Of a stretch of 64,000 bases of DNA, positions 4,889-60,204 are shown piece after piece. Positions within the stretch are counted from its first letter, which is position 1; every line of letters starts with the position of its first letter. Source of the stretch: Eledone cirrhosa (taxonomy: Eukaryota); assembly GCA_964016885.1 (NCBI GenBank), contig OZ024741.1, forward strand, positions 332,320,001 through 332,384,000. Direction: 5' to 3'. The notes under the pieces are model-generated. The model had not been told where the DNA came from. It worked only from the letters and a program-made list of their open reading frames with translations, and searched no databases. The position numbers and the translations under genes were made by a program.

Positions 4889-5127
4889 AGTTATATATTA
4901 AGAAATGGGCTAACAGCCAAAGTGTATCATAAAGTTATATCTGTATACATACAACTTTATCATACACTTTGGCTGTTAGCGCACTTCTTAACTATATATC
5001 TTAATTAATTACCAACACGAGCGCTAATTATATGCAAGTTAGTATGTCTATTTCAGAATAAAACTAAGAAAAAATGGGTACATATGCCCATCAAATACAT
5101 ATTTCCTTGTGGTTGATTGGATGATAT
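4889..5127. mobile_element. Head-to-head Penelope-like element relic (hairpin ~4889-5001 plus tail 5002-5127)
   Basis: Imperfect inverted repeat TAAGAAATGGGCTAACAGCCAAAGTGTATCATAAAGTT / AACTTTATCATACACTTTGGCTGTTAGCGCACTTCTTA. The tail recurs in reverse complement at ~7665-7795. Confidence 0.55.
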
Positions 5128-5129
5128 AC

Positions 5130-5177
5130 ACATCTTCTGATGAGGGTCCAATAAGATCTGAAATCAATTAAAGGTGT
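5130..5177 (+). ncRNA. Degenerate minimal type I hammerhead ribozyme
   Basis: ACATCTT-CTGATGA-GGGTC(CAATAA)GATCT-GAAA-TCAATTA-AAGGTGT. Stems I and II pair, stem III is imperfect. Confidence 0.5.
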
Positions 5178-6354
5178 TTATCATTCTTTTTCGTTTTACA
5201 GGGAAATTTGTATTTTCTGGCATGCTTAAATGCCTACATATTAGATATGTGTATATATTTATACACATGGTGCAGTCTTGGTTACACACTTTATTTTATA
5301 TAGATGTAACTTCATCATACATGTCAACAGCTAGCACACTTCATACATATACATATTACATATAAATTTTTAAAGAGCTAGCTTCTCACATCTAACATAT
5401 GTCTCTGTGAGTTCCTCAAATATAAGAAATACTTGGTTACAACGTAAAATGGAACCATTGTTATTCAATACGGTTCTATTCTTTGATGGGAAATGTGTGT
5501 AAATCTAATATGTTTTTAATATAAAGAAATTGGATCTCCAAAAAGTTTTCCAGCTTTTTGGAATAACGTATATGGGAAAAAGTCTGAAAAAACCCCCATA
5601 AAACCTTTCTTCTATACAATGGTGATAAGAATGTGTGTATATATATATATATTAGAATTGGTGCTCTGAATGTATATATACATTCATTATATACATATAT
5701 ATATATATATATATATATATATATATATATATATATATATATATATATAATTATATATATGTGTTTGTGTTTGCATGAAAATATGATTATATGTATAATA
5801 ATAATAATATATATATATATATATATATATATAGAGAGAGAGAGAGAGAGAGAGAGAGAGAGAGAGAGAGAGAGAGAGAGAGAGAGAGAGAGAGAGAGAG
5901 AGAGAGAGAGAGATATGATTAGAAGTATAACAATGTGTATATATATATGTGTGTGTTAATGTATATATCTATCTATATACACATATATATATATGTAAAG
6001 ATGTATGTATGTATATATATGTAAATATATATACCTGTATGTATGTGTGTGTCTGTGTGTGTGTGTACTTATTATGTTTACTATATGTGGTTGGTAATTC
6101 CTACACTGCTACTCTGAGTAGCAACACCGAGGGAGCTACTAGCTGTGTACTAAAGATAGCTATAATGTGTTGGGTATGTTTGATGGACCCATAACTCCTG
6201 ATAGAGTCGTAGGGGTGACACATTGACATACAGTGTCTCTTGGGCATTTTTTAAACCTGACAGAACCCATTCCCTCTCCAGGTCTGAAAACAGAAGATTT
6301 CTTCCAGTGATAGAAAGGAAGTGAGAAAAAGATATAGAGGAAGAATCGACCTCA

Positions 6355-6503
6355 GTACTAGATTGGTACTTTTTTTTATCAACCACGAATAGATGAAATG
6401 TAAAATTGACCTCGGCGGGATTTGAACTCAAAGATCACAGAGCCAGAAGAAATACTGTAAAGTATTATATCTGACATTCTAACAATTCTACCAATTCATT
6501 ACC
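6355..6503 (-). mobile_element. tRNA-derived SINE
   Basis: Minus strand has B-box GAGTTCAAATCCCGCCGAGG and a central TTTCATC..GTTGATAAAA..AGTACCA domain shared with other copies. Confidence 0.75.
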
Positions 6504-6606
6504 CAATATTAAATCATAACACCCTGTAATAATCCAGCTGAAAATATCTAAAAATTGGCTTGTTAATTCAAATGTTTATACTACCTCTACAATATGTTAA
6601 CACAGA

Positions 6607-7020
6607 TGTGGTGGCCATCAGCGAGACCAGAATTTCTGAAGCACGAGCCTTCGCACCGATCTTTGGCGGCTACGATGTATACACATCTCCCAGCCGTCCA
6701 GGATCTGGGTGAGGAGTTGCCGTGCTTTTTCGGAGAGGCTTGGATCTCGCCATACGGGCCATCTTCCTGGACTCAGAAGGTAAGTCAGTGGTGCTGGACG
6801 TGACAGGCAGCGAAGGCAATGCTTTCAGGCTAGTAGCCGTCTACGCCCCAACAGGGGCAGGATGGCCACATTTCTTCAGACGTCTAGAGACCTTTCTTGG
6901 AACGTCCCGCTCTTTAGTGTTATTGGGCAACTTGAACGGTATCTTAGATGCACGCTGGGATTATGTGGGGCTAGTAGACGGCAGGAGGGTGTAAAAGCCT
7001 CAGTAACCTGCTCAGACGTT
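6607..7020 (+). mobile_element. L1/Tx1-type LINE apurinic endonuclease fragment
   Basis: GC-rich island translating to DSEGKSVVLDV..FRLVAVYAPTG..FFRRLE..LVLLGNLNGILD, with APE VYAP and GDFN-like motifs. Confidence 0.75.
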
Positions 7021-7051
7021 ATCAGTTATCAGTATAGTATCACTATTGAAA

Positions 7052-58208: not shown

Positions 58209-58800
58209 CATCATCATCATCATCATCAACGTTTAACGTCCGTGTTCCACGCTTGCATGGGTTTGGACGGGGGTAGTCCCACTTGAGGCAAGAGTGATTG
58301 TCTTGCTCGCATAGGACTGTCTGGCAGGTTTTCTACAGTTGGATGCCCTTCCTAACACCAACCACATTTACAGTGTGGATCTGGGAGGTTTTTACCGTGT
58401 TGCCTACACGGCCACATTACAGCGTGGACTGTGTGTTTTTTTGTCGTGACACCTACACGATCTCATTTGTTTCGGCCTGGATGGCGCGGCACCAACATAA
58501 CTTTACATAGAACGGGGTGGTGTGGATGGGGTGGGGGTGGTGGCGGGACGGGGTGGGGGTGGTGGCGGGACGGGGTGTATTTTGTTAGAGATGCCTACTG
58601 GCAAGGCGGGTCTTCTCTGTTACTGAGTACCGCCAAAGGTCTCGGTCCAGTGACATTGTCTTGGAGAGGTGTAAGTGTGTGAGGTCGGAGTTTATCAGCT
58701 CATCCCATGTTTTTCTAGGTCTGCCTATTCCGTGGCTACCGTCTATCTTTATTGCCCTGCACTTTGTTATACAGCTATCGACTTTCATGCGCATCACGTG
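58209..58800 (-). mobile_element. RTE LINE 3' fragment
   Basis: [23 protein letters not shown] plus 3' UTR, with (TA)n on both sides. Confidence 0.9.
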
Positions 58801-58993
58801 TATATATATATATATATATATATATATATATATATATACATACACAGACACATATATATATATATATGTATACTCTATACATTTAAATATATTTAGTTAT
58901 ATTCTAGGAAATTATATTAGATCTTGGTATATACTAATCTTGGAATCCAAAAATATGTTCAACACTATTACTGTCATTATTGATGACACGGAG

Positions 58994-59205
58994 GGTGGTG
59001 GATTGGCAGTATTAGTAGTGTCAGACACCATGCTTTGCAGCAGAGAGTTATGGCCCTTTACGTTCTGAGTTTAAATCCCACTGAGGTTAGCTTTGCCTTT
59101 CATCCTTACGGGGCCAATAAAATAAAGCACCAGTAATGCACTGGGGTCAATTTAATCAACTTCTCTTTCTCCCCAAATTTCTGGCCTTGTGCCTATAGTA
59201 GAAAT
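58994..59205 (+). mobile_element. tRNA-derived SINE
   Basis: GGTGGTGGATTGGCAGTATTAGTAG..GAGTTTAAATCCC..GCCTTTCATCCTTACGGGG. Confidence 0.8.
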
Positions 59206-59276
59206 TGATGACAAGAGTCCACTAGTATATATATATATATATATATATATATATATATATATATATATATATATAT

Positions 59277-59598
59277 AATAAATGACTGATAAGTTTAAAA
59301 AATCTAATACAGTGTGGTAGAAATATATAAAGTGTAAAGGATGACAAATTAAAGAAAAAAAAAAACAAACAAACAATGGATGTGTTCCTCCTTAACTGCT
59401 CGACATAGAACACATCAATTGTTTTTGTTTAGAATTGTTTAGAATTGTTTCTGTTACACATTTGAAAAGAGCCCTGAAATATTATGTTGAAATATATTGG
59501 GTAAAACATGACATTATTTTATTATTTTTTCATCCTTTGCCTTTTGTATATTTCTACTTCATTATACTGGCTTTTAAAAACTTATCAGTCATTTATTA
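59277..59598. mobile_element. Old head-to-head relic with decayed hammerhead-like motif
   Basis: Arms TAATAAATGACTGATAAGTTT..AAAGGATGA / TCATCCTTT..AAACTTATCAGTCATTTATTA, with (TA)n flanks. Confidence 0.5.
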
Positions 59599-60019
59599 CA
59601 TACTTATATATATATATATATCATCATCATCATCATCATCACCGTTTTACGTCCGTTCTTCCATGCTAGCATGGGTTAGACGGGTTGTCCTGCTGACGCA
59701 GTGTCCGGTCGGCTGACCTTGTCTTGCTCATACGGGAACTGATTCTGGCTTGACTTCTACAGCTGGATGCCTTCCTAACACCAACCTCATTTACAGTGAG
59801 TGCTGGGTGCTTTTTTGCCATGGCACCTCCACGTCCACTTTGCAGTGGAATGATAGGGACCCCAGTCCTATCATTTCATTTCTACAGCTGAGTAAACTGG
59901 AGCAATGTGAAATAAAGTATCTTGCTCAAGGAAACAACACATCACCCGGTCCGAGAATTGAACTCGCATCCTTTTGATTGCAAGTCCAATGCTCTAACCA
60001 CTAAGCCATATATATATAT

Positions 60020-60204
60020 CAGATAGGGTGTGGTAAAAACTAGCTAGACCATAACCCACCAGAGTACTCGATACTTGGAATAGTAGGGTGGGTAATATGA
60101 AAAGATTCAGGATCCTGATGGCTGAGCCTTGGCCGTATTGACAGCTAGATCTAGCTGTCGAAACGGCCGGAGCTCAGCTGTCAGGGTCCTGAATCTTTTC
60201 ATAT
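60020..60204. mobile_element. Head-to-head PLE relic folded back within hammerhead stem II
   Basis: Hairpin 60095-60204 centred on AGATCT. The right arm has GAAACGGCCG. The tail at 60020-60094 is homologous to the 37110 and 40820 islands. Confidence 0.7.

Follow-up and report, generated by a model that had tools for sequence, protein, structure and literature searches.

The window analysed here, a stretch of 64,000 nucleotides from Eledone cirrhosa (contig OZ024741.1), carries a series of hairpin insertions assigned to families a to k (Table 1). According to the original prediction, these insertions share one geometry, in which two inverted copies of an element 3′ end are joined head-to-head, one arm bears an extra tail and both outer ends face TA-rich microsatellite. 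Arms, a single extra tail and TA flanks were confirmed at eight of the eleven sites listed, namely 23340-30276 (d), 30612-31370 (e), 50960-51325 (h), 54184-54490 (i), 9901-10258 (b), 10276-10468 (c), 60020-60204 (j) and 37110/40820 (f and g, counted as one site; they are members of family j and mutual local duplicates with 97.6% identity over 246 nt). The geometry did not stand at two sites. At 4889-5127 the sequence of family a continues beyond 5127 and, past a hammerhead core at 5137, reaches at least 5345, and the claimed tail boundary is therefore not established. The family k copy at 59278-59598 is essentially tailless and without a canonical hammerhead core; this family is old (~80% identity), and its other copies have a tail of ~35 nt. 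The tail measures 56-139 nt across the measured families, and a microsatellite flanks 331 of 382 insertion ends at the sampled loci.

Table 1. Features of the hairpin insertions in the window (positions from the first nucleotide of the window)
Positions	Strand	Feature	Length or remark
4883..5345	+	Family a, old tandem monomer; hammerhead core 5137	Monomer ~355 nt; 58-nt inverted piece on 5′ side
9901..10258	-	Family b; long untailed arm, core 10053 (-)	Short tailed arm 10132-10258
10276..10468	+	Family c; arms 10276-10332 / 10340-10396	68-nt tail; hammerhead broken at 5′ core
23340..23474	-	Family d tail, inverted left arm, ends in TA repeat	136 nt
23475..24357	-	Family d inverted pLTR arm; hammerhead core 23682	~880 nt; 98% complementary to 29412-30276
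24358..26436	+	5′-truncated Hydra-type ORF: RT (DKT, YRDD), CxCX5C linker, C-terminal GIY-YIG	
29412..30276	+	Family d pLTR, untailed end; hammerhead 30060-30212, core 30069	~120-nt stem-loop II; pairing by eye
30612..30752	-	Family e tail	139 nt
30753..31370		Family e head-to-head arms 30753-31053 / 31070-31370	1 mismatch; cores 31213 (+), 30910 (-)
37110..37355		Family j copy (f)	66-nt tail segment x3; untailed arm ~20 nt
40820..41066		Family j copy (g)	Local duplicate of 37110-37355
50960..51041	-	Family h tail	~85 nt
51042..51325		Family h arms with minimal hammerheads	Cores 51149 (-), 51225 (+)
54184..54490	+	Family i; short untailed left arm; hammerhead core 54294	Tail ~54393-54490
54219..54265		Family i internal hairpin	23 bp
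59278..59598		Family k, old inverted pair	Window copy lacks a clear tail and a canonical ribozyme
60020..60204		Family j; left arm with tail	77-nt tail; hammerhead 3′ half only

The description of the insertions as ribozyme-bearing applies to families h, i, b, d and e, in which a full hammerhead is predicted, by descriptor in the first three and by eye in d and e, where stem-loop II is long. In c and j the copy is truncated within the motif, and f and g are without it; family j has a core variant and family c a weak stem I. The strict descriptor gave no match in d, e, c, j or a, and the Rfam scan of the window gave no hammerhead among the 150 matches listed, which are microsatellite and hairpin look-alikes. 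Minimum-energy folds of seven hammerhead regions are not distinct from those of shuffled sequences (z from -1.7 to +0.4). A canonical hammerhead is predicted, from motif and pairing, to lie within the pseudo-LTR (pLTR), as is characteristic of the Hydra clade of Penelope-like elements (PLEs).

The RT-GIY-YIG ORF that had been proposed to lie inside one insertion is present in the family d copy; its missing N-terminus was found at another locus (L173), where the family d tail continues into the 5′ end of the ORF. The small insertions had been attributed to PLEs on the strength of this ORF, and the attribution now extends to five families tied to Hydra-clade RT and GIY-YIG ORFs; the number of ORF-linked families is at least five, and exact motif matches per family range from 386 to 43,737. 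Family e has intact 784-codon frames at L091, L099, L101 and L104, and an intact single ORF of 775 aa (RT and GIY-YIG) at L091. The ORF link was obtained at L008 and L136 for family h and at L244 for family i, while the endonuclease (EN) C-terminus lies upstream of family j at L188, L195 and L196. Invariant residues of RT and EN are kept across 51 sequences. No ORF link was found for family b among 25 loci, and none is shown for a, c and k; an endonuclease fragment at L306 was considered as the family c ORF and rejected, as it is not contiguous with family c. The unit is 3,178 nt long in e and 3,334 nt in h, and partial tandems form direct or inverted pLTRs at L091, L136, L173 and L244. The tandem joint of family e is also present in raw reads.

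The RT motifs are RWK/DKT in e, RWR/DKT in d and i, and RWI/DKT in h, family j being covered for the EN end only. The CxCX5C linker occurs in d, e and h, and CCHH is absent. CxxC and CxH surround the conserved E and N in e, h and j; the window ORF of family d stops before CxH. By these motifs, rather than by an RT tree, the hairpin insertions are assigned as copies of several Hydra-clade Penelope-like families. A Pfam search with five proteins gave no match at the cut-off, and the sole match of a sequence-profile search was a retron RT (E 0.0017). In the predicted RT structure (pLDDT 86.6), the best two Foldseek matches are telomerase RT (TERT; 3du5_A, E 5.5e-10), which places the modelled RT closest to telomerase RT by fold comparison rather than by phylogeny.

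The two outer ends of an insertion were classified as N, the end of the pLTR (untailed), or T, lying 56-139 nt downstream (tailed); junctions with a TA run were left out of this count. One N and one T end were recorded in 187 of the 191 two-armed insertions at the sampled loci, about 99% (h 59/60, e 27/27, d 6/6, j 47/48, i 15/15, c 24/26 and b 9/9). Genome-wide, family j has 8,624 N+T, 71 N+N and 34 T+T insertions in matched 31-nt length windows, while independent choice of ends predicts 2:1:1. One tailed and one untailed end would also be expected if two cDNAs with a common start site, or a longer DNA intermediate, were trimmed or resolved by the endonuclease at the N site of one end, the tail being a matter of resolution in the wording of PMC8557442. 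The N site is AT-rich and resembles the target, as this explanation would have it. However, untailed ends directly adjoin (TA)n, two RT starts observed in vitro for another PLE correspond to the tail ends (PMC11167929), and arms consisting of tail only would still require separate priming. Resolution of one end is hence considered unlikely.

The arm lengths bear on a second alternative, the hypothesis of PMC3846280, in which a single cDNA folds back to serve as its own template, or antisense RNA primes itself, so that the copied arm is shorter and the tail is left. Among the 187 insertions, the arms are within 30 nt of each other in 109, and arm ends have hot spots at short palindromic sites (about -172 in h, -216 in d); both observations, and the alleles shared between arms, are in keeping with fold-back, which may also contribute to some junction inserts. 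However, fold-back predicts that the tailed arm is always the longest and that the arms always overlap. The tailed arm is longer in 21 insertions, but the untailed arm is longer by more than 30 nt in 40, and in 17 the tailed arm is a piece of the tail with zero sequence shared with the other arm (16-17, as L019, a doubtful T+T call that also stands among the tail-only sequences, was flagged and retained). The untailed arm reaches 4006 nt against 231 nt at L099 and 3454 nt against 310 nt at L136, and the family d copy in the window (tailed ~1.0 kb, untailed 5.9 kb) belongs to the same class. In both classes each arm has sequence missing from the other, and therefore neither arm was copied from the other. 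Fold-back is contradicted as the general mechanism and is given very little weight. A three-way test of which pLTR, inner or outer, the short arm copies gave counts of 5/5/3/1.

The arms of one insertion also share source alleles. Polymorphic sites are discordant between arms at 10/657 in family h, against 38% between insertions, and the corresponding values are 1/80 against 34% in e and 10/183 against 47% in j. Concordance is weak in i (17/52 against 44%) and c (23/144 against 43%), both sampled by best match to a mutated query. Gene conversion between arms could also produce such concordance. Two independent insertions placed back to back in one microsatellite can practically be dismissed, even though these families occur densely and TA tracts are often shared among them, since the arms are of the same lineage, TA-run junctions had been excluded and neighbours closer than 7 kb are arranged head-to-head rather than tail-to-tail by 29:1 (h), 28:1 (d) and 24:3 (e), among the first 100 pattern matches by position per family. 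Many copies show one detectable arm only (in family h, 34 of 65 clusters have one exact match).

MITEs typically have short inverted ends in TA, which the insertions resemble, and fold-back chimeras arise in sequencing libraries. The insertions are, however, most improbable as TIR DNA transposons or as library or assembly artefacts, which together with constant fold-back points were the grounds on which the prediction was to be abandoned: the ends are asymmetric, the same ends flank RT-EN ORFs rather than transposases, the centres, and with them the fold-back points, vary between copies, thousands of loci obey family-specific end rules and the arms have diverged by 0.2-7%. Raw reads of another study further support the ends and joints of family e, with 124 and 103 short RAD reads running from the untailed end into (TA)n and two opposite-strand joints of 3 reads each; in a contig of another organism, the tailed end of this family continues into (TA)n. 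A search for empty sites of 31 insertions among the sampled loci gave no usable one.

Exact microhomology was scored at the junctions of family e, the youngest; those of other families were mostly scored as inserts, partly through reference mismatch. Of 27 junctions, 2 are blunt, 7 have 1 nt and 10 have 2-5 nt of overlap, and 8 have inserts or reference mismatch, while the null gives 55% blunt and 17% with at least 2 nt. The excess of microhomology is significant for the 19 clean junctions (P = 3e-4), the 8 insert-scored ones being left out of this test and elsewhere kept and flagged, as well as for all 27 (P = 9e-3).

All classes of insertion are accommodated by the original proposal of two separately primed cDNAs joined head-to-head. 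We consider it probable (roughly 0.7), as read from genomic copies rather than from intermediates, that the insertions arise by programmed twin priming, for which the RNA would offer two fixed sites separated by 56-139 nt. Endonuclease cleavage of both (TA)n strands would leave two free target ends, each of which would prime its own cDNA on the element RNA, one starting at the N site and the other at the T site, as suggested by where copies end. Each cDNA would halt at a variable upstream point, and the two cDNA 3′ ends would be joined, often via the 1-5 nt of microhomology or short templated inserts seen at the joins. A one-tailed palindrome would result when both cDNAs cross the same stretch, and a plain inversion when the T-primed cDNA stops within the tail; overlapping arms from one RNA would require strand displacement. 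A single RNA or a single asymmetric particle is suggested by the near-strict N+T rule together with the alleles that the arms have in common. Points that weigh against twin priming are the short TA-like stretch at N and T, of 2-6 nt only, the initiation reported for another PLE away from any homology to the target (PMC11167929) and the many copies with one detectable arm. The insertion products, from which priming is read here, fit L1-type priming by two target ends; L1 twin priming reportedly goes with the names of Ostertag and Kazazian (2001). The further proposal that one primer sits at the RNA 3′ end is not supported: tandem copies continue past the tail end into the ORF, and both start sites are internal in PMC11167929.

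Whether twin priming is the normal, hard-wired integration of EN+ PLEs, with one particle using one RNA twice, each strand assigned one fixed site and the downstream cDNA displacing the upstream one, is a tentative extension, for which the odds are slightly below even. If true, one step would explain the tail, the inverted pLTR and the head-to-head palindromes across EN+ PLEs, RT-driven second-strand priming would be unneeded and these telomerase relatives would rank among the main origins of short palindromes in the genome. The prediction of a major unrecognised source of palindromes holds in that thousands are made, the 8,624 of family j in one length window of a 3.0-Gb genome making these elements a large source of ribozyme-containing hairpin DNA, with a bearing on assembly, double-stranded RNA and repeat annotation. 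"Unrecognised" was overstated, as the one-tailed head-to-head geometry is drawn in Fig. 2 of PMC8557442 and described in PMC3846280. What is new here is the coupling of N and T ends and the test of mechanism; the coupling, together with the tail-only insertions, excludes the published self-priming as a general route and gives sharp predictions for the existing in vitro assay, for which family e, with its N and T sites mapped, offers naturally intact ORFs. A literature search found no twin-priming or two-cDNA model for PLEs, though older subscription Penelope papers may contain one.

Inverted 5′-truncated copies (noted, for instance, for Penelope-13_HM), one-sided tails, hammerheads and (TA)n targeting have been published for PLEs, and the Hydra clade is known from Octopus as Hydra-1_Obim (PMC8557442). 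The available text of that paper gives no end-class statistics and names the mechanism of tandem or inverted one-tailed insertions as open (section 15). The present families share with the Hydra clade the C-terminal GIY-YIG, RWK-type and DKT motifs, CxCX5C, the lack of CCHH, CxxC/CxH, the hammerhead in the pLTR and the (TA)n target. They differ in their tails (56-139 nt against an optional 30-40 bp) and in their units of 3.2-3.3 kb or more, against generally <3 kb, a descriptive rather than defining figure; by eye, none of the hammerheads matches that printed for Hydra-1_oBim (PMC8557442). Family a has the ~355-nt tandem monomer and type I hammerhead, with no ORF seen, of metazoan non-LTR retrozymes (PMC7229834) and falls within their size range of 150-450 bp per tandem monomer; unlike them, it also occurs in inverted copies, and it could be a non-autonomous PLE.

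Adineta vaga Penelope elements have in common with the present ones head-to-head inverted pLTRs, palindromic junctions and an optional tail on one pLTR, but the self-priming on an antisense template proposed for them (PMC3846280) is contradicted here by the tail-only and long-untailed insertions. For Poseidon PAc of Anolis, two RT starts bound the tail in vitro, both target strands are nicked and extended, the site of initiation shares no homology with the cut DNA and hammerhead cleavage is not required, tandem and inverted insertions being left to "additional steps" (PMC11167929). The pair of start sites, like the nicking and extension of both strands, had thus already been demonstrated in vitro; however, the starts are tied there neither to opposite strands (no strand difference) nor to inverted copies, whereas the ends are coupled at ~99% here (PMC11167929). 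In L1 twin priming, reverse transcription is primed from either side of the break, at two regions of the RNA, and an inversion results (PMC2246262). The present elements differ from L1 in that the sites are fixed, neither is poly(A), the arms usually overlap and inversion is common rather than a side reaction.

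The predicted geometry of the insertions, two inverted arms joined head-to-head in (TA)n with one arm tailed, was upheld at 8 of the 11 sites, with 37110/40820 counted once since they are local duplicates of each other and both belong to family j (letters a to k denote the hairpin families). Inverted pairs were recovered at every listed site by self-comparison of the window, but the description did not hold for families a and k. That the insertions bear ribozymes was true of h, i, b (called by descriptor), d and e (called by eye), each with a complete hammerhead inside, while c and j are cut within the motif.

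Hairpin sites in the window and genome-wide loci (L numbers) linking their families to ORFs
Family	Window position	Observation	Basis	ORF-linked loci
a	4889-5127	old tandem-repeat family with a ~355-nt monomer; extends beyond the predicted bounds, past its hammerhead core at 5137, as far as 5345 or more		
b	9901-10258	geometry present	self-comparison	
c	10276-10468	geometry present	self-comparison	
d	23340-30276	geometry present	self-comparison	
e	30612-31370	geometry present	self-comparison	L091, L099, L101, L104 (intact 784-codon frames; unit 3,178 nt)
j	37110/40820	geometry present; local duplicates		
h	50960-51325	geometry present	self-comparison	L136 (unit 3,334 nt)
i	54184-54490	geometry present	self-comparison	L244
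k	59278-59598	this copy lacks a clear tail or canonical ribozyme		
j	60020-60204	geometry present	self-comparison	L188, L195, L196 (endonuclease end)

For the ORF at 24358-26436, within family d, 78 homologues were recovered, and it bears the motifs by which PMC8557442 defines the Hydra clade of Penelope-like elements (PLEs). The genome measures 3.0 Gb, a size that in combination with these elements would point to a cephalopod host. Genome searches connected four further families (e, h, i and j) to Hydra-type ORFs and showed no such link for a, b, c and k; the clade is known, the families are new. The predicted structure of the e protein (pLDDT 86.6) has telomerase RT as its best match. Exact motif matches, which are not copy numbers, amount genome-wide to 19,064 (h), 386 (e), 7,392 (d) and 43,737 (j). 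The family j hammerhead core in L195, L196 and L202 is TTGAGAA, in which U3:A8 replaces the common C3:G8 pair; position 3 differs again in L188 and L191.

The two outer ends are almost strictly coupled. One tailed and one untailed end were found in 187 of 191 head-to-head junctions, comprising every such junction in the fetched loci with both outer ends classable. The h, e, d and j loci were mostly position-ordered matches to arm-only patterns; 46 larger regions were chosen for two close matches, a choice favouring neither end class; the i, b and c loci and the first 30 h loci were best matches, the c query containing the tail. Counted genome-wide and without bias in matched length windows, family j has 8,624 mixed pairs (98.8%), as against 71 with both ends untailed and 34 with both ends tailed. 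The fold-back point is variable, its distance ranging between 81 nt and 5 kb for h and between 69 nt and 6.8 kb for d, with family-specific hot spots close to the 5' half of the hammerhead. In family c (L287-L310) the last letters of the tail are CA, and at 4 of 18 distinct ends at least 5 CA units follow directly before TA, possibly by reiterative copying at the reverse transcription start or by later slippage. At L192/L193, near-identical family c tail ends face inward on both sides of a j insertion.

Read outward, each arm is an antisense strand that begins in (TA)n and therefore requires a sense template. The untailed arm is longer by >30 nt in 40 of the 187 insertions and the tailed arm in 21, while 109 have arms within 30 nt of each other; in the remaining 17 the tailed arm is tail only. 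These are locus lengths; indels make slight differences uncertain, whereas a contrast like that in L099 (231 versus 4,006 nt) is unaffected. Tail-only insertions are plain inversions without a palindrome, one (L019) being doubtful. In these and the longer-untailed-arm class each arm contains sequence absent from the other, so that we infer two priming events on RNA, in line with the original prediction of two separately primed cDNAs. Both start sites have 2-6 TA-like letters by plain letter count. An overlap of 1-5 nt is present at 17 of 19 clean family e junctions, where the null expectation is 45%; 8 further e junctions have inserts or reference mismatches. In tandem copies the order is pseudo-LTR, tail, ORF, and the tail is thus the stretch just downstream of the pseudo-LTR; since it precedes the ORF, its far end is not demonstrated as the RNA 3' end at which one primer had been placed.

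Coupled ends and tail-only products together favour programmed twin priming, with a probability of about 0.7, over the other explanations. Resolution by the endonuclease, to which PMC8557442 ascribes the tail while calling the mechanism open, is unlikely. Fold-back or self-priming, proposed on an antisense template in PMC3846280, would make one cDNA first and copy the other from it; the tailed arm, made first, must then extend furthest upstream and overlap its copy, and the 40 longer untailed arms and 17 tail-only arms make this very improbable. Two independent back-to-back insertions are excluded because both arms of an insertion mostly carry the same family alleles in h, e and j: discordance is 1-5% within an insertion versus 34-47% between insertions, with weaker sharing in i and c. 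This sharing favours a single source RNA, though gene conversion may also produce it. Under twin priming, the use of one RNA rather than two, strand displacement and a joining enzyme would be presumed steps.

An assembly or library artefact was checked against a separate study's raw reads, which concern family e and not the hairpins of the window. In 124 and 103 of these reads the untailed end continues into (TA)n; the tandem joint is present, and two opposite-strand joints have 3 reads each, though reads of this short RAD type are weak evidence for joints. In one contig from another organism the tailed e end continues into (TA)n. Arm divergence is 0.2-7% by family.

Beside a TA run, a further hairpin at 43627-44071 (arms 43939-43968 and 44042-44071), absent from the original list of sites, may represent another family. 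Junctions at 37110-37355, 40820-41066, L170 and L029 contain short segments tandemly repeated 2-3 times, which suggests repeated re-annealing of a cDNA end. Compound (TA)n-GTATG arrays (30277-30611, 31377-31975) directly adjoin d and e, and 43057-43256 is a 200-base assembly gap. LINE-like fragments ending in (CAT)n lie beside TA runs at 11064-13479, 33582-34969 and 42343-46704, with an RT frame at 33959-34960 (-) among them; two such ends form a small tail-to-tail hairpin at 10821-10895. A long single-exon frame with cadherin-type repeats at ~2150-4550 (+) is presumably a protocadherin, judged by eye from its motifs.

The insertion shape is already published: PMC8557442 describes 5'-truncated copies in inverted orientation, a tail of 30-40 bp at one end, a bias towards (TA)n, hammerheads in Hydra elements and a Hydra family from Octopus, and minimal PLE hammerheads are covered in PMC4209133. 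End coupling and tail-only products are absent from the papers searched, and no twin-priming model for PLEs was found in the literature searched, older subscription papers on PLEs being outside it. Twin priming itself is known for L1 (PMC2246262), and in PMC11167929 two internal RT starts bound the tail and both strands are extended, but there the starts are not tied to inversions.
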